A stretch of 64,000 bases of DNA from an uncultured Gammaproteobacteria bacterium (GTDB lineage Bacteria; Patescibacteriota; Patescibacteriia; UBA1558; GWA2-36-10), in the NCBI GenBank assembly GCA_964638415.1, contig CAZWYP010000003.1, positions 86,334 to 150,333 on the forward strand, read 5' to 3'. Numbering within the stretch: position 1 is the first letter of the stretch; the number at the start of each line of letters is the position of its first letter. Both the position numbers and the translations under genes were made by a program. The notes beneath the pieces were generated by a model, which worked only from the letters and a program-made list of their open reading frames with translations, ran no database searches and was not told the origin of the DNA. Of the stretch, positions 1 to 22,170 are shown in pieces.

Positions 1-1249
1 TACCACCATGCGGCGGTACGCCATAGCTAAAAGCTTCAATGTAATGCTTAAATTGCTTCTTCTGTTCAGCAGTGAAGCCAATTAAATCCCAGATTTTTTC
101 TTGTAATTTGCTGTCGTGGATTCTCACTGCGCCACCGCCTACTTCAAAGCCGTTTAAAATCAAATCATGCTGGTAAGATCTGACCTTGCCTGGATCAGTA
201 TCCAATAGCGGAATATCTTCTTCCTTGGGGGCGGTAAACATATTATGCGACGGACCCCAGACTTTGCCGGCATAGTGGAATTTATCTTCCTCCGTCTGCT
301 TCATAAATAATGGAAAGTTAATTACCCAGGCAAAAGCCAGTTCATCCTTGTCATTCTTGTCTTTCCGCAAATCCGGCTTGTCATTGCCATATTGAGCCAT
401 CGCTTCCTCATAGTTCAGTCTGGGCCAGGGCGTCTGCATAATTCTTTTCTCCGGCCAGACTGCCTGCACCATCTTAGTCATCATATCCTCTACTAAGTTT
501 AAAATCTCTTCCTGGGTCATAAAAGACATCTCCATATCCAATTGGTAGAATTCTCCCGGTGAACGGTCAGCTCTGGCATCTTCATCTCTAAAGCAAGGTG
601 CAATCTGGAAATACTTTTCCAAGCCAGCCACCATTAAAAGCTGCTTGTATTGCTGTGGTGCTTGTGGCAAGGCAAAGAATTGGCCGGGATGCATTCGCGA
701 TGGTACTAAATAATCCCGTGCTCCTTCTGGCGTGGATTTGGATAGAATCGGCGTTTGTACTTCACAAAAGCCTTTATCACTCAAATAATTACGGAAGAAA
801 CGGATAGTTTCATGCCGCTTACGGATATTGCGTGCCATTCTTTCATGCCGTAAATCCAGATAGCGGTATTTTAATCTTAATTCTTCATTAGCCTGTCTTT
901 CCTCATTATCTATCTCAAAAGGTGGCGTTAAGCTTTCAGTAATAATCTCCAAATCTTTAGCCAGAATCTCAATATTACCGGTCAACTGATCTGGACGTTT
1001 CTGTTTTTCACCTCTAGCCTGGATAATACCAGTAATCTTCACCACAAACTCCGGTCTAACTTTGTCTAACAACTCTCTAGAATCTGCTGTCATTTCATCC
1101 GGCACGCAAACTACCTGGACAATGCCGGTAGAATCGCGTAATTCAATAAAAGCTAATTTTCCCATCCGGCGGTAAATATGCACCCAGCCTTTTAAAGTGA
1201 CAGCCGAACCAATTTCTAAACTAACTGTTTCTTTGACGTAGTTTTTCAT
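1..1249 (-). CDS. aspS: Aspartyl-tRNA synthetase, bacterial type; C-terminus lies beyond the window start
   Basis: The reverse-strand translation from ATG at 1249 reads MKNYVKETVSLEIGSAVTLKGW... It has a class II aaRS core (FRDE, GVPPHGG-like motifs) and a GAD-type insertion. The ORF stays open to position 1. Confidence 0.85.
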   Translation of the reverse strand, partial: MKNYVKETVSLEIGSAVTLKGWVHIYRRMGKLAFIELRDSTGIVQVVCVPDEMTADSRELLDKVRPEFVVKITGIIQARGEKQKRPDQLTGNIEILAKDLEIITESLTPPFEIDNEERQANEELRLKYRYLDLRHERMARNIRKRHETIRFFRNYLSDKGFCEVQTPILSKSTPEGARDYLVPSRMHPGQFFALPQAPQQYKQLLMVAGLEKYFQIAPCFRDEDARADRSPGEFYQLDMEMSFMTQEEILNLVEDMMTKMVQAVWPEKRIMQTPWPRLNYEEAMAQYGNDKPDLRKDKNDKDELAFAWVINFPLFMKQTEEDKFHYAGKVWGPSHNMFTAPKEEDIPLLDTDPGKVRSYQHDLILNGFEVGGGAVRIHDSKLQEKIWDLIGFTAEQKKQFKHYIEAFSYGVPPHGG

Positions 1250-1269
1250 TTTATTTCTTTAATTATTCG

Positions 1270-1346
1270 TGGAGCCACCCGCCGGAATCGAACCGGCGAC
1301 CCACGGTTTACGATACCGTTGCTCTACCAGCTGAGCTAGGGTGGCT
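1270..1346 (-). tRNA. tRNA-Thr (anticodon CGT), CCA encoded
   Basis: A cloverleaf can be drawn by hand with acceptor agccacc/ggtggct, D-arm agctcagctggtagagc, anticodon stem acggt/accgt with loop aTCGTaa, and T-arm gccggttcgattccggc. Confidence 0.8.
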
Positions 1347-1372
1347 AAACCCCATTTTTAATGGGGTAAAAT

Positions 1373-2662
1373 TTAAGGCTTTAATCTGTAAATCGTCCGG
1401 GGAAAAGGAATAGACTCTCTTACATGCTGCAAACCGCAGACCCAGGAAACAATTCTCTCCAAACCGAAACCAAATCCGCCATGGGGAACAGAACCATATT
1501 TTCTCAAGTCTAAATACCATTCAAATTCCTTAACCGGCAACTTATGCTCTTTAATTCTGCTTAACAAAGTATCGTAATCATCTTCACGCATGGAACCGCC
1601 AATAATCTCACCATAGCCTTCGGGAGCCAGTAAATCCGCACACTGTGCCCGATCCTTATCCTCCTCATCCCTCTTCATGTAAAAAGCTTTGACTTTAGCT
1701 GGATAGTGGGTAATAAAAATGGGATTGTCATACTCTTTAGTCAGCATCGTTTCATCTTCTGCTCCCAAATCATCATCTGCCTTAATCTTAGAACCAAGCT
1801 TATGCAATTTTTCCACTGCTGCCGCATGCGTTAAGCGGTAAAATGGCTTAGTAATATTCTCCAATGGCTTAATGTCTCTTTCTAATATTTTTAACTCCTC
1901 TTTATTCTCTGCCAACACTTTTTTGACCATGAATCTAATCAGCTCCTCCTGTACATCCATATTCTGCTGCAAATTAATAAACGCCATTTCCGCATCCATC
2001 ATCCAGAATTCTGTTAAGTGTCTCCTAGTCTTAGACTTTTCTGCTCGAAAAACCGGACCAAAGTCAAATACCCGGCCATGAGCGGCAATAGCTGCTTCCA
2101 GATATAGCTGTCCAGACTGGGATAGATAAGCGAAAGTATCAAAATATTTCAGCTTAAATAATTCTGTGGTGCCTTCACAGGCATTGGGAGTAAGAATAGG
2201 AGAATCTATTTTAATAAAATTATTTTCCTTCATGAATTCATAAGTAGCCAGGATTAAGGTATTGCGTACGCGTTGAATAGCCCATTGTTTAGCAGAACGT
2301 AGCCATAAATGCCGCTGATCCAGTAAAAAGTCTATGCCATGATCTTTCTTGCCAATGGGATACTCCTCAGCAATCTGGTAAAAAGAAAAATCTGAAACTT
2401 GAATTTCATATTCATTATTCTTGGGATGCTGGGAAACCTTGCCAATAATCTGCACTGAACTTTCTAAGCTGATTTGCTTAGCCTGCTCCCATTTATCTTC
2501 AGCTAGCTCGCTGGAACTTAAAATCGCCTGGGTAAATCCCGACCCATCTCTTAATTGCCAAAAGGCAATTTTGCCCGAAGAACGGAAATTATATACCCAA
2601 GCGTTAAGCTCTACTTCTTTGCCGACAAAATCGGCTAAATGTTTAATTAAAACTCTTTCCAT
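1373..2662 (-). CDS. asnS: Asparaginyl-tRNA synthetase (class IIb; a non-discriminating Asp/Asn-type enzyme cannot be excluded)
   Basis: The 429-aa product has an N-terminal OB fold and a class II core with FRAEKSKTRRHLTEFWMMDAEMAF and GGFGFGLERIV motifs. It is distinct from the bacterial-type AspRS immediately upstream. Confidence 0.8.
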   Translation of the reverse strand: MERVLIKHLADFVGKEVELNAWVYNFRSSGKIAFWQLRDGSGFTQAILSSSELAEDKWEQAKQISLESSVQIIGKVSQHPKNNEYEIQVSDFSFYQIAEEYPIGKKDHGIDFLLDQRHLWLRSAKQWAIQRVRNTLILATYEFMKENNFIKIDSPILTPNACEGTTELFKLKYFDTFAYLSQSGQLYLEAAIAAHGRVFDFGPVFRAEKSKTRRHLTEFWMMDAEMAFINLQQNMDVQEELIRFMVKKVLAENKEELKILERDIKPLENITKPFYRLTHAAAVEKLHKLGSKIKADDDLGAEDETMLTKEYDNPIFITHYPAKVKAFYMKRDEEDKDRAQCADLLAPEGYGEIIGGSMREDDYDTLLSRIKEHKLPVKEFEWYLDLRKYGSVPHGGFGFGLERIVSWVCGLQHVRESIPFPRTIYRLKP

Positions 2663-2696
2663 TTATTATGGTTATCATTAGAAATAATACCTAAAA

Positions 2697-2730
2697 TAAA
2701 GAAAAAAGTCTATACTGGAAAGTATAGACT
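2697..2730 (-). terminator. Rho-independent terminator downstream of the minus-strand tRNA cluster
   Basis: A perfect 10-bp stem agtctatact/agtatagact with a ggaa loop is followed on the minus strand by a T-run. Confidence 0.6.
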
Positions 2731-2734
2731 TATG

Positions 2735-2807
2735 AGGCGCCAGACGGAATCGAACCGCCGACTTCCGGATTTGCAGTCCGGCACTCTACCAACTGAGTTA
2801 TGACGCC
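2735..2807 (-). tRNA. tRNA-Cys (anticodon GCA)
   Basis: The acceptor is ggcgtca/tggcgcc and the D-arm is actcagttggtagagt. The anticodon stem ccgga/tccgg carries loop ctGCAaa. The T-arm is ggcggttcgattccgtc. Confidence 0.8.
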
Positions 2808-2816
2808 AATGAATTG

Positions 2817-2964
2817 CGCTGGAGGCAGGATTCGAACCTGCGGAGATGAATGATTCCAAGAAATCTTGGAGAAATCCGCCTGTGTTTATAGCTTCAGATT
2901 TCTTGGTCTCATATGCTCATCGTCGGGTGTCAGACCGATGCTTTTAGCCACTCAGCCACTCCAG
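2817..2964 (-). ncRNA. Aberrant 148-nt tRNA-like gene, class-II-like with a roughly 70-80-nt internal insertion; identity unresolved
   Basis: The 7-bp acceptor gctggag/ctccagc is perfect. The D-arm tggctgagtggctaaaagc resembles Ser/Leu-type arms and the T-arm gcaggttcgaatcctgc is canonical. Between the anticodon region and the T-arm lies a long insertion holding an 11-bp hairpin ccaagaaatct/agatttcttgg. No canonical 5-bp anticodon stem with a 7-nt loop could be drawn. Confidence 0.45.
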
Positions 2965-3072
2965 CAACTGATTAAGAACAAAAAAATAGACAAAAATTAT
3001 TCTAGCAAATTAATATTATTCTGTCAAGATAAAGACCGCCGTATTTAACGGCGGTCTTGTTTTGTCTATTAT

Positions 3073-4965
3073 TTATTCAGCAGGAAGTTCTACTGGAGTG
3101 CTGACTGGCTGCAATTGCACTACGCGCTGATTGACGGTCTGCACATCCTTAAAATCATAACCTAATGATTTAAAAGTTTCTTCATCCTTGATCCAGTGGC
3201 GCTTGCCTTCAGCAATGATATAAACTTGGGGATTTTCTACAGTCTTGACTAAAGTGCCGTCAGCTAATTTAACTGGCGCCTCATCTTTTAATTCCTCCAG
3301 AATTTCCGGTTTATTCTCTATCTTCACATCAGCATAGTTAATCTCCAATATTTTTTGATCAACAATTGGCTTTTTAACTTTCTTTTCTTTATCTACTAAG
3401 TAGACGCCGCCATTTTTGGCTTTAATTAGGCTCTCGGTAGTTTTTAAGCTGGGCGTTGGTTTAATTGACGGCTTTTCTTCCGGCTTGATCTCTGGCTTTT
3501 CTTCTTCCGGTTTCACTTGCTCATCATCTTCAAAAGTCTTAATACTTGCTGCTTCCGTTGCTCGGCAGGCAAAAGTCTGTCCGCCGGCATCATAGTAGGC
3601 ACCAAAACTTCTAGTCGCCCAATTCCCAATAATGGTGTTGCCGATAAACTCGGCAGATTTAGTGGCTGGATACCATTTCTGGCAGTATTTAACCGCATCA
3701 ATATTAGCTCCGCTCACGCCGTCAGGATCAGTGGTCCAGGCAGCATCAGCATTATTACTGGTATTAACCGGAGTATAATACTTATTCACTTTGCCATAAA
3801 AATAACTAATTGCTCCCAAATCTTTACTGGTAGGCATAGCGCCTAAACCGTTAGTCGGCGGCGTCATACAGGCAAAAGTCAACCAGCGGCCATTTTCCCT
3901 CGTACCGATATATTTATACCAAGCAGGCTTGTAAGATCGATTATCCATGCTCAAAGCCACATAGCTGCCAGGAAAATGGGTTTGGCAAGCCTGCAAAGCA
4001 TCGCTAGCCCTGGTTGGTTTGACCGTGCTGGTTTGCCAACTGCTTTCCCCAATAGCGCGGTATTTGGCGGGAATATTCTTTCTTAAAACTACATAACCTT
4101 TCACATCACCAGGTAAAATTGGCCAATACGGAGAAAAGTCAACAATTGGTGATTCGTAAATGGATTTATCGTAATAATAATATTCCGGCTGATTCAAAGC
4201 TTGTCCACTTTCAGTCGGTTTGTCTGTTGGTTTGGTGGTCGGCTTTTCTACTGGTTTAACATCTGGCTTAGTAGTGCTGGTTGCACACTTTACATATTCA
4301 TGCACATGATCAGTAAAATATGACCACATTCTTCTGGCTGTACCATCAGTGTTAACCTTAGCATCCAGATCATCCACTCCGGTGGTATACCACTGTGACC
4401 ATTCTCCACTCCACCAGCGAATGCGGTATTTAATAATTTCCGGATGAGCAGAAACATCTAAATGCAGATTCTCCCAATATTTATCCATAGTCGGCTTGGC
4501 AATAACGCTGGTGCATTGGCTACCATGATTTAAACTGTCATCACTTGGCTTAGTGCTATCATCATCTAAATCATTGTCATTCTCCGGCTTATTACTGTCA
4601 TCATCGCAGACAATTATTTCATGGGTATAGTCTGTAAAACGCGCCCAGAGCCGTCTTTGGCTGCCGTCAGCATTCTTCTGCCAGTCAATATCGTTAATGC
4701 CCGGCACATACCAGTCAGACCACTGGCCATTGTCTAATTTCACCCGATAAGCTTGGATATCATCGTGGCCGGAAACATCTAATCCCTTTTCCCAATCATC
4801 ATCCTTGGTGGGAGCAATAGTCTTGGTGACTGGATTCTGACACTCAACCGTAAGGTCGCTGCCTTCTTTAACACCCAAAACCGTCATTTCCTTAGCCTGT
4901 ACTTGCCAAGCTAAGAGGCTAATTAAGCCAAAAGCTAATAAGCCTATTAGTTTAAAATTGCGCAT
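3073..4965 (-). CDS. Large secreted hypothetical protein with two tandem ~70-aa internal repeats and Pro/Thr/Lys-rich linkers
   Basis: The 630-aa ORF starts with signal peptide MRNFKLIGLLAFGLISLLAWQVQA. It contains two paralogous segments (…QAYRVKLDNGQWSDWYVPGINDIDWQKNADGSQRRLWARFTDYTHEIIVCD / …IKYRIRWWSGEWSQWYTTGVDDLDAKVNTDGTARRMWSYFTDHVHEYVKCA) and PT-rich linkers. Confidence 0.6.
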   Translation of the reverse strand: MRNFKLIGLLAFGLISLLAWQVQAKEMTVLGVKEGSDLTVECQNPVTKTIAPTKDDDWEKGLDVSGHDDIQAYRVKLDNGQWSDWYVPGINDIDWQKNADGSQRRLWARFTDYTHEIIVCDDDSNKPENDNDLDDDSTKPSDDSLNHGSQCTSVIAKPTMDKYWENLHLDVSAHPEIIKYRIRWWSGEWSQWYTTGVDDLDAKVNTDGTARRMWSYFTDHVHEYVKCATSTTKPDVKPVEKPTTKPTDKPTESGQALNQPEYYYYDKSIYESPIVDFSPYWPILPGDVKGYVVLRKNIPAKYRAIGESSWQTSTVKPTRASDALQACQTHFPGSYVALSMDNRSYKPAWYKYIGTRENGRWLTFACMTPPTNGLGAMPTSKDLGAISYFYGKVNKYYTPVNTSNNADAAWTTDPDGVSGANIDAVKYCQKWYPATKSAEFIGNTIIGNWATRSFGAYYDAGGQTFACRATEAASIKTFEDDEQVKPEEEKPEIKPEEKPSIKPTPSLKTTESLIKAKNGGVYLVDKEKKVKKPIVDQKILEINYADVKIENKPEILEELKDEAPVKLADGTLVKTVENPQVYIIAEGKRHWIKDEETFKSLGYDFKDVQTVNQRVVQLQPVSTPVELPAE

Positions 4966-5120
4966 AAATTATATATTAATGCTTAACTTTTTACATTATA
5001 CCACAGATACTACCTTTAAAACACCTATAGCCAATGCTAAAACCTCTTGATTTTTTCTACCTTAAGTGTATACTTATGCCTGCCATAATTCTAACTAAGC
5101 AACCAAATAACAGAGGAACA

Positions 5121-6146
5121 ATGCCCCAACTGCTAAAACAACAAATTCTGGATATGAATGCTGCTAAATCCAAAGAATTTGTTGACAATATCAATCTACG
5201 ACGCACATATCGTGGCCAATACAAAACTCATTTGGCCGCTACCATGTGCATGGATGGACGAGTAAACGTCAGGCGAGCAGCCGGTCTTCCTTTTGGTATT
5301 GTTTATCCTTTCCGTAATATCGGCGGAAAGTATAATGTCGGTTGGCCCCTCATGCGTGATTCTCTTGATCAGTGGGCCGACCACGCTCATGGTAAATACC
5401 ATGAAGCGCTGCTGATGACCACCTACCACTGGTCAAAAACAGACGCACACCTTGGCTGCCGCGGTTTTAATTATGATCGGGACGCAGCTGTCGCTGGCAT
5501 CCGCCAATTTCGTGATCAAGTTGCCTCTTGCTATGGTAAACGCATTTGGCCAGTATTAGTCGGAATTGAAACCGACAGTGATGCCTTGATCTTCCATGGA
5601 CTCAATGGCGAAGTGCTGGATCTGCGCGAAGTTCCTTTGGATAATTTAGCTGCTTTTTTTGAAAAAAGATTAGCAGAAATGTATCCGGACTTTCCCGATG
5701 TTGTTCTTTCCGACATGATTCCCCTGCTCTTGGGCAATGTGAATCATCTGCGCAAAAACGGCAGTTCTCACCAGGAAAAATTCCTGGCTCACCGCGAAAG
5801 AGTATTAGCCATCGGCCAAGGCTTTGACTGGCTGGACAATGACAACTTTGCTTTAATCATTGGCCCTTGTGAGCCGGCATTAGACAATGCCATTGTAACT
5901 GCTGCTAGCATTCTACAGTCCAATGTCACTGAGGGTCGCATTGATGCCAATGAAAAAGGCGTTTTGCTAATTTCTACACCCTACCGTCGAAGTATCGACA
6001 GGCTGGCAGCTATTGAGCAGTCTCGCTATCTAGCGGAGTTTGCCATGAAACATATTGGTGAACAAATTCCGGAGATGAGAGACTTCTTTGATCCGCTGGT
6101 TACGATCATCAACCTTGATGACCGCCGGCTGGAAATCTGCGGCTAA
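5121..6146 (+). CDS. Hypothetical protein with beta-carbonic-anhydrase-like zinc-site motifs (CxDxR … HxxC); the gene is GC-rich
   Basis: The ORF starts at MPQLL with RBS gagga 6-10 nt upstream. The longer track start at 5034 is unlikely. Motifs CMDGR and HLGCRG are spaced about 67 aa apart, as in beta-CA. There is a TTGATT-N16-TATACT promoter-like element at 5047-5074. GC is about 50% against about 38% in neighbouring genes. Confidence 0.45.
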   Translation: MPQLLKQQILDMNAAKSKEFVDNINLRRTYRGQYKTHLAATMCMDGRVNVRRAAGLPFGIVYPFRNIGGKYNVGWPLMRDSLDQWADHAHGKYHEALLMTTYHWSKTDAHLGCRGFNYDRDAAVAGIRQFRDQVASCYGKRIWPVLVGIETDSDALIFHGLNGEVLDLREVPLDNLAAFFEKRLAEMYPDFPDVVLSDMIPLLLGNVNHLRKNGSSHQEKFLAHRERVLAIGQGFDWLDNDNFALIIGPCEPALDNAIVTAASILQSNVTEGRIDANEKGVLLISTPYRRSIDRLAAIEQSRYLAEFAMKHIGEQIPEMRDFFDPLVTIINLDDRRLEICG

Positions 6147-6210
6147 GCTGAAGCGCAAAAAAACAAGCGGTCCACTGTGATGGACTGCTTTTTCTTTTAA
6201 GATAATACTA

Positions 6211-6414
6211 TTATTTTCTATACTCTAAAATATCTCCGGGCTGACATTCCAAAGCCTGGCAAATAGCTGATAATGTAGAAAAACGAATTGCTTTGGCCTT
6301 CCCATTCTTTAATATGGAAATATTAGCCAGAGTAATACCGACTTTATCAGCAAGCTCGGTTACTCCCATTTTTCTTCTAGCCAGCATTACATCAATATTT
6401 ATGATAATCGCCAT
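6211..6414 (-). CDS. XRE/Cro-C1 family HTH transcriptional regulator (YozG-like)
   Basis: The 67-aa product carries an HTH (VTELADKVGITLANISILKNGKAKAIRFSTLSAICQAL). It is paired with an upstream small membrane protein, as in yozG-DUF2975 gene pairs. Confidence 0.7.
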   Translation of the reverse strand: MAIIINIDVMLARRKMGVTELADKVGITLANISILKNGKAKAIRFSTLSAICQALECQPGDILEYRK

Positions 6415-6423
6415 ATTATTTTT

Positions 6424-6903
6424 TTAAACCGTTAAATCGTTTTCAGACTTTAGATCTACGGCACTTTGTAAAAGTTTTTCAAAAACAGCAGCGGCAGTAG
6501 TTACGACAATAGCAATAAAAGTAATAATAATGCCTAAGGAAATAGGACCAGTAATATCATCATTACCATGCCAAGTAACAATAAGATAAGCTTCTCCTAA
6601 TACAATAAAGCCAATTATCGCTAGCGCACAATATTTTATCGCCCTCAAAGATCTGATAGAGTTTAGTGAAAATACTTTATTCTGCTTAATATATCCTAAT
6701 AATCTAAATGCCTGGTAAAGAGCAGCAAAAAAAGGAATAGAAGCTATATACATATACACAATAACTGGATCAAAATAAATTTGAATCAAGTCTAAATTAA
6801 CCGCTCTGCCTTCAGTTAAGGGAAATCTAATAAGGCCTATTAATACCACGGCCCCAATGAATAAAATTACTATTTTTAGAAATATTACTGAGCCTTTTTT
6901 CAT
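6424..6903 (-). CDS. Small polytopic membrane protein (DUF2975-like partner of the XRE regulator)
   Basis: The 159-aa product has 4 predicted TM helices. It lies 9 bp upstream of the HTH gene in the same orientation. Confidence 0.5.
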   Translation of the reverse strand: MKKGSVIFLKIVILFIGAVVLIGLIRFPLTEGRAVNLDLIQIYFDPVIVYMYIASIPFFAALYQAFRLLGYIKQNKVFSLNSIRSLRAIKYCALAIIGFIVLGEAYLIVTWHGNDDITGPISLGIIITFIAIVVTTAAAVFEKLLQSAVDLKSENDLTV

Positions 6904-6985
6904 AATTATTATTTAAATTATTAATAATTACACTATAGCTTATCTCTTATCGTTTGTCAATATATTTTTATTGTTTATAATTTCT

Positions 6986-7060
6986 TGGCTCCGGGGGCTG
7001 GATTCGAACCAGCGGTATCTGCATTAACAGTGCAGCGTTGTACCACTCAACTACCCCGGA
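6986..7060 (-). tRNA. tRNA-Asn (anticodon GTT), CCA encoded
   Basis: The acceptor is tccgggg/ccccgga and the D-stem is gttg/caac. The anticodon stem ctgca/tgcag carries loop ctGTTaa. The T-arm is gctggttcgaatccagc. Confidence 0.85.
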
Positions 7061-12440: not shown

Positions 12441-12517
12441 GCGCCTATAGCTCAGCCTGGTAGAGCAGTTGCCTTTTAAGCAAACGGTCGCAGGTTCGAA
12501 TCCTGCTGGGCGCACCA
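12441..12517 (+). tRNA. tRNA-Lys (anticodon TTT), CCA encoded
   Basis: The acceptor is gcgccta/tgggcgc and the D-arm is gctcagcctggtagagc. The anticodon loop is ctTTTaa. The T-arm is gcaggttcgaatcctgc, followed by CCA. Confidence 0.8.
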
Positions 12518-22095: not shown

Positions 22096-22170
22096 TGGTA
22101 CCGCTACGGGGAATCGAACCCCGATTACCAGATTGAGAATCTGATGTCCTAACCGTTAGACGATAGCGGC
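22096..22170 (-). tRNA. tRNA-Glu (anticodon CTC), CCA encoded
   Basis: The Glu-type D-arm gtctaacggttaggac is present. The anticodon stem tcaga/tctgg carries loop ttCTCaa. The T-arm is cggggttcgattccccg. The acceptor gccgcta/tagcggt has a G1-U72 wobble. Confidence 0.7.

Follow-up and report, generated by a model that had tools for sequence, protein, structure and literature searches.

The 64,000-nt stretch of contig CAZWYP010000003.1 analyzed here (the window), from a member of the Patescibacteriota with a tiny genome, harbors a tRNA-like gene on its minus strand (2965 to 2817). It is a class II gene of the tRNA-Ser type that shares a promoter-to-terminator unit with a tRNA-Cys gene. Its tRNA body is intact, whereas its variable arm is hyper-extended and its anticodon arm defective. 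Its RNA is 149 nt long including the discriminator G73 (G2817) and reads GCUGGAG-UG-GCUG AGUGGCUAA AAGC-A-UCGG UCUGACAC CCGA-C-(77-nt hairpin)-UCC-GCAGG UUCGAAU CCUGC-CUCCAGC-G. The assignment draws on the Rfam tRNA model, the predicted fold, the nearest canonical tRNAs, and the 3′ tail, which is CAA, such that CCA is not encoded. A preliminary description made from the sequence had placed the gene at 2817 to 2964 (148 nt); its lower end stands, whereas the upper end reaches 2965 and the gene is one base longer.

The acceptor stem GCUGGAG/CUCCAGC (5′ strand 2959–2965, partner 2818–2824) forms seven of seven Watson–Crick pairs. The D-arm GCUG/AGUGGCUAA/AAGC (2940–2956) has 3 bp plus G13·A22, and its 9-nt loop carries G18G19, a layout typical of class II tRNA-Ser. 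In the T-arm GCAGG-UUCGAAU-CCUGC (2825–2841), the stem pairs at five of five positions and the loop follows the GTTCRAnnC-type consensus. The perfect acceptor stem, class-II-like D-arm, and canonical T-arm of the preliminary description are all borne out, and the tertiary positions of the elbow and core (U8, A14, G15/C48, and A26) are as expected. With the Rfam tRNA model (RF00005), whose gathering score is 29 bits, the gene attains 42.3 bits; over the 64-kb window this corresponds to E = 1.3e-5. The alignment spans model positions 1–71 completely and treats approximately 75 nt of the variable region as inserted. ARAGORN in its default mode does not call the gene. The fold of the whole molecule has a z-score of −3.55, with none of 200 shuffles equally stable, and enforcing the cloverleaf stems costs 1.8 kcal/mol over the unconstrained minimum.

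The tRNA type was assigned by comparing the core, i.e., the 5′ 26 nt and the 3′ 25 nt, with a reference library, made up of the 809 tRNAs that ARAGORN calls across all fetched loci. Among the 25 class II tRNAs closest to the core, 21 are tRNA-Ser; nearly all of these carry G73, as does the tRNA-like RNA, whereas Leu and Tyr tRNAs carry A73. The G73 and the Ser-type D-arm place the gene with class II tRNA-Ser, and its D-arm 20-mer is identical in a phage tRNA-Ser(GCU) (L229). C44-G45 precedes the variable arm, which is also the case in E. coli tRNA-Ser. The core is 61% GC, as opposed to 15–36% in nearby intergenic DNA.

The variable arm (2845–2921, 77 nt) occupies exactly the class II position, between C44 and the UCC that leads into the T-stem. 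From its base, it consists of a GAUGA/UCAUC helix, a 4-nt bulge (GCAU), an AUGA/UCAU helix, a 2×2 internal loop (GA/AA), a perfect 11-bp helix (CCAAGAAAUCU/AGAUUUCUUGG, 2896–2906 and 2856–2866), and a 29-nt terminal loop that contains the mini-hairpin GGA-UUUC-UCC. The duplex amounts to 5 + 4 + 11 = 20 bp in three segments. Folded alone, the arm has a z-score of −4.2 (1 of 500 shuffles is as stable), and pairs form with a probability of 0.93–1.0 in the 11-bp helix and of 0.95 in the outer one. The 70–80 extra nucleotides with an 11-bp perfect hairpin that had been reported earlier are this arm, and the option of an unusually long variable arm, raised at the same time, fits what they form. The usual variable arm of bacterial class II tRNA-Ser measures roughly 13–21 nt. 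The present one, a hairpin between positions 45 and 48 as expected of class II tRNA-Ser, is approximately four times that size. The RNA resembles bacterial class II tRNA-Ser in its 7-bp acceptor, G73, D-stem, G18G19, C44-G45, hairpin variable arm, and consensus T-arm. It differs in the length of that arm, in a 4-bp/8-nt anticodon arm that holds no in-register Ser anticodon, and in an acceptor that starts with G1-C2 and not G1-G2.

Short sequences recur within the arm. Two copies of GAUUUCU are separated by 11 nt, and the two AUGA copies of the 5′ strand have their counterpart in two copies of UCAU on the 3′ strand. These repeats suggest that the arm may have grown in place by slippage or template switching within the hairpin. 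A small mobile palindrome, of the kind known as miniature inverted-repeat transposable elements (MITE) or repetitive extragenic palindromes (REP), that had entered the variable loop of an ordinary tRNA gene would likewise account for a perfect 11-bp inverted repeat that flanks 29 nt. However, the only matches in the 64 kb are the two hairpin arms themselves, no second copy exists in the 1.3 Mb of fetched loci, and no target-site duplication is evident. In addition, the AUGA/UCAU and GAUGA/UCAUC helices extend the pairing past the inverted repeat. A mobile palindrome is thus extremely improbable, and the earlier suggestion of a mobile RNA is not supported. No antisense target or complement of the insert is present in the window or in any fetched locus.

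Other identities of the insert were likewise rejected. Rfam covariance models find nothing besides tRNA at E ≤ 10 across 2700–3100, which covers introns of groups I and II, ribozymes, transfer-messenger RNA (tmRNA), and the other Rfam families. The small self-cleaving ribozymes (hammerhead, twister, pistol, hatchet, and HDV-like) are among the families without a match. Group I introns, at approximately 200 nt or more, are far longer than the insert of approximately 60–75 nt, which moreover lies in the variable arm and not in the anticodon loop. ARAGORN finds no tmRNA, and a selenocysteine tRNA (tRNA-Sec), which has an 8/5 or 9/4 acceptor/T geometry, a 6-bp D-stem, and a UCA anticodon, is incompatible with the 7/5 geometry, the 3-bp D-stem, and the lack of a UCA in register. 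Of the families that the preliminary description had named for checking (tRNA, tRNA-Sec, and tmRNA), only tRNA is matched.

In intron mode, ARAGORN reports a tRNA-Val(GAC) with a 56-nt intron at 38/39. This call was rejected, as it places C·A and U·U mismatches in the anticodon stem and leaves an unstructured 24-nt “variable loop”. Archaeal-type introns, which are bracketed by a bulge-helix-bulge (BHB) motif, were sought with a scripted search (3-nt bulge, 4-bp helix, 3-nt bulge), for which an archaeal gene, L150, served as the positive control. L150 (144–266, minus strand) is a tRNA-Ser(GCU). Its anticodon arm is normal, and its variable region of 54 nt harbors a textbook BHB, i.e., a variable-arm intron. 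The motif consists of GGG/CCC, then CUAC/GUAG with bulges GUA and ACG, and then AGGU/GUCU. The gene is missed by ARAGORN and scores 55.2 bits with Rfam; its neighbors encode archaeal S-adenosylmethionine (SAM) synthetase, Lhr helicase, and MetAP2.

The window RNA shares with such archaeal tRNAs a class II core, G73, and a structured variable-arm insert of approximately 50–75 nt, and its 4-bp helix flanked by unpaired nucleotides recalls the archaeal BHB-cut tRNAs. L150 combines canonical BHB geometry with an anticodon arm that is normal. In the window RNA, by contrast, the 4-nt bulge is on the opposite side of the 4-bp helix and the partner bulge is absent, and the host is a bacterium. The remaining BHB matches in the window RNA are at chance level (shuffles average 2.2) and conflict with the stable fold. 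With no group I/II or ribozyme match, no BHB bracketing the insert, and a mismatched ARAGORN model, the intron proposed earlier is not supported for any known class, nor is the gene a standard tRNA with a defined intron.

Removal of the variable-arm hairpin as an intervening sequence (IVS) after transcription, by RNase III or by an unknown endonuclease plus ligase, is a different matter. Excision would leave a class II tRNA of approximately 90 nt, either nicked (“split”) or religated, in which the GAUGA stem and a short loop remain; this 5-bp stem and short loop would be a normal tRNA-Ser arm. RNase III acts on substrates of approximately 20 bp, about two helical turns, and the 20-bp helix in three segments is in this size class. 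Comparable elements are the IVSs of bacterial 23S rRNA, extended hairpins of approximately 20 bp at the tip of a native helix that are excised by RNase III; they are known for rRNA and not for tRNA. The predicted fold of the window RNA likewise has a 20-bp duplex at the tip of a native helix. To our knowledge, there is no precedent for an excised insert in a bacterial tRNA.

RNase III is encoded by relatives from the candidate phyla radiation (CPR; L232), and Patescibacteria commonly carry introns as well as rRNA insertions (PMC13011429). However, a review of the field lists introns of groups I and II only (PMC4033280), and these are the only recognized interruptions of bacterial tRNA genes, almost all of them in the anticodon loop (PMC4033280; PMC13011429). 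The published tRNA introns of Patescibacteria are self-splicing group I introns in the anticodon loop, at 35/36 and neighboring positions, and all published intron cases in tRNA lie in the anticodon loop or the D-loop (PMC13011429). The window gene shares with these intron-containing genes the phylum and the fact that standard annotation misses them owing to the insertion, yet its insert has no Rfam intron match, is too short, and lies in the variable arm. A literature search returned no description of bacterial tRNAs with variable-arm inserts.

Canonical BHB geometry, as noted, is not present. A Pfam scan of 34 window proteins (35 kb annotated) finds no splicing endonuclease (EndA), no RtcB-type ligase, and no other splicing, ligation, or tRNA-dependent enzyme; the genes are housekeeping genes only. 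Moreover, excision would leave the anticodon arm unrepaired. Taken together, these considerations make post-transcriptional excision very unlikely.

The anticodon arm (2923–2938) is aberrant. It comprises a 4-bp stem, UCGG/CCGA, and an 8-nt loop, UCUGACAC, for a total of 16 nt instead of 17. The pair probability of its stem is only 0.23–0.27. An alternative fold offers five “pairs”, one of them U·C, and a 6-nt loop, and no arrangement of 5 bp and 7 nt exists, in agreement with the preliminary description. This arm is where the gene departs from the Rfam tRNA family, which has a 5-bp anticodon stem and a 7-nt loop with U33 and a purine at 37. No Ser anticodon (NGA or GCU) sits in a canonical loop; UGA occurs only with a C at position 33, and the in-register reading is GAC (Val). 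Because the loop holds a canonical-looking C32-U33-GAC-A37-C38, the cmscan alignment and the “Val(GAC)” label of ARAGORN arise.

This loop, together with a fully tRNA-like core, leaves room for a working decoder, i.e., a class II tRNA with the anticodon GAC or with a four-base anticodon in its 8-nt loop, charged with Ser or Val. Such a tRNA would provide extra Val decoding, low-level Val-to-Ser ambiguity, or quadruplet reading, a concept akin to the nematode nev-tRNAs. Bacterial allo-tRNAs likewise combine class II tRNA bodies with anticodons foreign to Ser or Leu. The nev-tRNAs are class II tRNAs with class I anticodons that can be expressed and used (PMC3333845). The resemblance lies in the class II body with a non-Ser/Leu anticodon, GAC in the window RNA. 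However, nev-tRNAs were chosen for a canonical 5-bp stem and 7-nt anticodon loop, have arms of 15–16 nt, and form conserved families (PMC3333845), whereas the window RNA has a defective anticodon arm that is one nucleotide short, an arm of 77 nt, and no siblings.

The codon usage of the host speaks against the decoder as well. In the AsnRS gene, GUC and GUU codons fall in the Val/Ile columns of 119 AsnRS homologues, and a reassignment of GUY to Ser was rejected on these grounds. GUY is thus ordinary Val, such that a Ser-charged reader with GAC would mistranslate and no recoding needs the tRNA-like RNA. By the tRNA identity rules, G73 and a class II shape are atypical for tRNA-Val. We also know of no precedent for a 77-nt arm on the ribosome. 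A decoding function is accordingly considered distinctly unlikely.

The gene is embedded in a compact transcription unit on the minus strand. A σ70-type promoter (2999–3027; TTGACA, a 17-nt spacer, TAGAAT, and an extended TG) lies approximately 34 nt upstream of G1; with 11 of 12 hexamer matches, it is the best site within 1000–3600. A canonical tRNA-Cys(GCA) gene (2734–2807; 70.8 bits, no encoded CCA) follows 9 nt downstream, and an intrinsic terminator, an 11-bp stem followed by a T-run (2706–2731), closes the two-gene tRNA operon. The tRNA-like gene is most likely cotranscribed with tRNA-Cys, as judged from this layout. Since the 9-nt spacer leaves no room for a second promoter, the tRNA-like gene should be transcribed whenever tRNA-Cys is. 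Of the “Thr/Cys cluster” perceived earlier, the tRNA-Cys is indeed adjacent, whereas the tRNA-Thr is approximately 1.5 kb away, past the AsnRS gene. The region of the tRNA genes and the promoter is also covered in part by mechanically called open reading frames of 33, 60, and 49 aa, at 2846–2947 (plus), 2866–3048 (plus), and 2710–2859 (minus), respectively; nothing points to their being genes.

The locus is supported by more than one assembly. An independently assembled Logan contig (L001) contains the identical gene, and another from a different sequencing run (L002) opens with the last 14 nt of the gene and continues into tRNA-Cys, such that an error in a single assembly does not explain the gene. 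Among the window's five canonical tRNA genes, the 3′-CCA is encoded by four, namely Thr (1270–1345), Asn (6986–7060), Lys (12441–12517), and Glu (22096–22170). Out of all six tRNA genes, it is missing only from tRNA-Cys and from the tRNA-like gene, and the operon may therefore differ from the other window tRNAs in its origin or in its route of 3′-end maturation.

The missing CCA is one of several features that could indicate a foreign tRNA-Ser gene, archaeal or other, acquired horizontally together with a variable-arm insert and inert in the bacterium. Another is the acceptor start, GCUGGAG: all bacterial and phage tRNA-Ser genes in the library start with GGA, GGU, or GGG, whereas a GC start, combined with G73, is in the style of archaeal and eukaryal tRNA-Ser. 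The closest core overall is that of an archaeal intron-containing tRNA-Ser(CGA) (L149), identical at 45 of 51 positions in a sample that the search pattern biased toward intron-containing genes. Archaeal tRNA-Ser genes with variable-arm introns do exist, as exemplified by L150. However, the window RNA has no BHB motif, the D-arm 20-mer is also found in the phage tRNA-Ser, and the gene resides in a bacterial promoter–terminator unit with a bacterial-type tRNA-Cys. On account of the biased sample, a foreign origin is treated as a minor rival only and is deemed highly improbable.

Homologues of the gene were sought in syntenic loci, metagenomes, and viral sequences. The syntenic set comprises 80 GTDB-species representative loci around AsnRS, and the tRNA-like gene and tRNA-Cys are absent from all 80. 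In the 20 closest of these, only tRNA-Asn, AsnRS, and tRNA-Thr are found at this place. Contigs that carry homologues of two neighboring, lineage-specific genes, which encode a 630-aa protein and a carboxysome-shell carbonic anhydrase (CsoSCA)-like protein, are also without the tRNA-like RNA. Five exact-pattern scans of viral contigs returned no homologue. In viral contigs, the anticodon-arm 16-mer occurs in coding DNA only, the 3′-half 22-mer and a tRNA-Cys 21-mer have zero matches, and the pattern of a class II D-arm, a long gap, and a T-loop yields no homologue of the insert. GenBank phages match at the T-arm only. In metagenomes, a pattern of a class II D-arm, 75–105 nt, and a T-loop occurs at no fewer than 120 loci (at least 120), and none among the matches listed shares the insert. 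The gene is thus known from one genome only, and with no homologue found, there is no evidence from conservation or covariation.

The metagenome matches listed are eukaryotic tRNA-Leu genes, archaeal tRNA-Ser and tRNA-Leu genes with introns, partial duplications of tRNA-Ser of the attachment-site (att) type, and several phage tRNA-like genes. In seven bacterial loci (L106, L158, L171, L191, L194, L199, and L212), tRNA-Ser is preceded by a partial copy of its own 5′ part, which includes the acceptor, the D-arm, and part of the anticodon arm; these copies resemble duplicated attachment sites, of the kind that elements integrating at tRNA-Ser leave behind. Single closed tRNA-like genes occur on phage-like or low-GC contigs (L104, 4237–4372, plus strand; L102, 3241–3358, minus strand, the same as L119; a 145-nt family in L162, L185, and L188; and L133, L180, L137, L218, and L230). 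They have the same class II D-arm (GGCUGAGUGG...), a perfect acceptor, and an expansion of 60–90 nt in the anticodon region, right after the D-arm. The motif GGGAG...AGCC(C) is common to several of them. The gene in L104 scores 42.3 bits against the Rfam tRNA model and has both the anticodon and the variable arm expanded; ARAGORN misses the two that were checked (L102 and L104).

The best matches of the downstream AsnRS gene (at most 79% identity) are in metagenome-assembled genomes of Parcubacteria, Komeilibacteria, and other Patescibacteria, and the ordinary bacterial housekeeping genes of the window include ArgRS, DnaB, RecR, Suf, L10/L12, and an mra/mur cluster. Directly upstream of the L10/L12 genes lies the ribosomal protein L10 leader (RF00557, 32426–32560, minus strand), whose 45.5 bits narrowly exceed the threshold of 44. 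In five of the nearest relatives (L005, L009, L011, L023, and L027), tRNA-Asn lies approximately 60 nt upstream of AsnRS. In the window (2700–7060), the two are separated by 4.3 kb, which contain genes for a DUF2975 protein, a helix-turn-helix (HTH) protein (annotated from the identical contig L001), the CsoSCA-like protein, and a 630-aa secreted protein, as well as the tRNA-like gene and tRNA-Cys.

The 630-aa protein (3073–4965, minus strand) has a signal peptide, is internally repetitive, and matches nothing in Pfam; among 5.8 billion proteins, it has only four homologues, all distant. The CsoSCA-like protein (5034–6146, plus strand; 341–370 aa) bears weak similarity, short of the curated cut-off, to the catalytic domain of the carboxysome-shell carbonic anhydrase (PF20686). 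Its family numbers approximately 60 proteins, mostly from Patescibacteria, often with a P-type cation ATPase adjacent. The synteny of the CsoSCA-like gene and the P-type ATPase gene is conserved in two loci (L231 and L232), which weakens the view of the whole 4.3-kb block as a foreign island and makes a rearrangement the better description. No att-like direct repeat surrounds the block beyond the general similarity of tRNA 3′ ends.

Considering the locus as a whole, the explanation that we favor, with a confidence somewhat short of even, is a lineage-specific paralogue of the tRNA-Ser type, the variable arm of which has expanded locally, which has lost standard decoding, and which travels as a passenger of the tRNA-Cys transcript. 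The variable arm would have lengthened to 77 nt via local hairpin-extending duplications or template switches and not by acquiring an intron or mobile element, while the anticodon arm would have lost one nucleotide to become 4 bp with an 8-nt loop. From its place between a strong σ70 promoter and tRNA-Cys, the gene would be transcribed together with the latter. Its intact acceptor/T-arm minihelix and elbow should make the transcript a substrate for RNase P, 3′ trimming, and CCA addition, and processing would presumably give a stable, tRNA-shaped RNA of approximately 150 nt. The gene would then be a young relic carried in the tRNA-Cys transcript, and any remaining role would be a non-decoding one. 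The disrupted pseudogene mentioned as an option in the preliminary description remains a live option in this sense, as a part of the best explanation.

Several observations sit uneasily with a passenger relic. A long-dead pseudogene in an AT-rich genome would show scattered damage, yet the core is undamaged outside the anticodon arm, which implies that the changes are recent or that the fold is under selection. The anticodon loop is still a textbook C-U-GAC-A-C, and if a long arm were selected for, repeats that extend the helix on both strands could be the outcome. AsnRS identity to the nearest relatives sampled is approximately 78%, apart from one match of 88% on a 1.3-kb contig; as the lineage is thinly sampled, absence elsewhere says little about selection. 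The inventory of tRNA-Ser and tRNA-Val genes considered is that of the window.

These points connect with a further possibility, a functional, non-decoding RNA derived from a tRNA, with a tRNA-like fold and a CCA tail, possibly serylated by seryl-tRNA synthetase (SerRS) via the variable arm. It would serve as a protein-binding scaffold, an extra-ribosomal aminoacyl donor, or a module through which the tRNA-Cys transcript is processed or regulated, and the long arm would be a functional addition. The core, tertiary positions included, is intact and rich in GC, the arm with its 20 bp is highly stable, and the operon layout should assure expression. Damage is confined to the decoding end, as expected if the fold but not decoding had been kept. 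However, no homologue, and hence no conservation or covariation, backs this role; the 35 kb annotated contain no tRNA-dependent enzyme or partner gene, and the window contains no antisense target. A non-decoding function is therefore regarded as unlikely, and the passenger paralogue is preferred.

The 77-nt variable arm is outside the range described for a bacterial tRNA body. The gene is nevertheless still a class II tRNA or tRNA-derived gene, and it is a singleton. A promoter-driven and otherwise flawless class II body with a four-fold oversized arm fits no described category. Of practical importance for annotation, the default mode of ARAGORN misses the gene, while its intron mode mislabels it as a tRNA-Val with an intron.

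There is some chance, though not a large one, that the bacterium maintains and uses a tRNA with a structured arm of approximately 77 nt. This could be an aminoacylated non-canonical adaptor (a Ser- or Val-charged reader, by GAC or by quadruplet, or an extra-ribosomal aminoacyl carrier) or the first bacterial tRNA with a variable-arm insert excised in an RNase III-like manner, split or religated. Either a maintained adaptor or an excised insert would depart from the structural uniformity that textbooks ascribe to the tRNA genes of bacteria. If the gene is functional, the RNA oddities of Patescibacteria, i.e., rRNA insertions and group I introns in tRNA, would extend to a new site and mechanism, and the question would arise of how SerRS, EF-Tu, and the ribosome cope with an arm of this size. 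As a relic, the gene would instead offer a rare snapshot of the decay or remodeling of a tRNA gene inside an essential tRNA operon.

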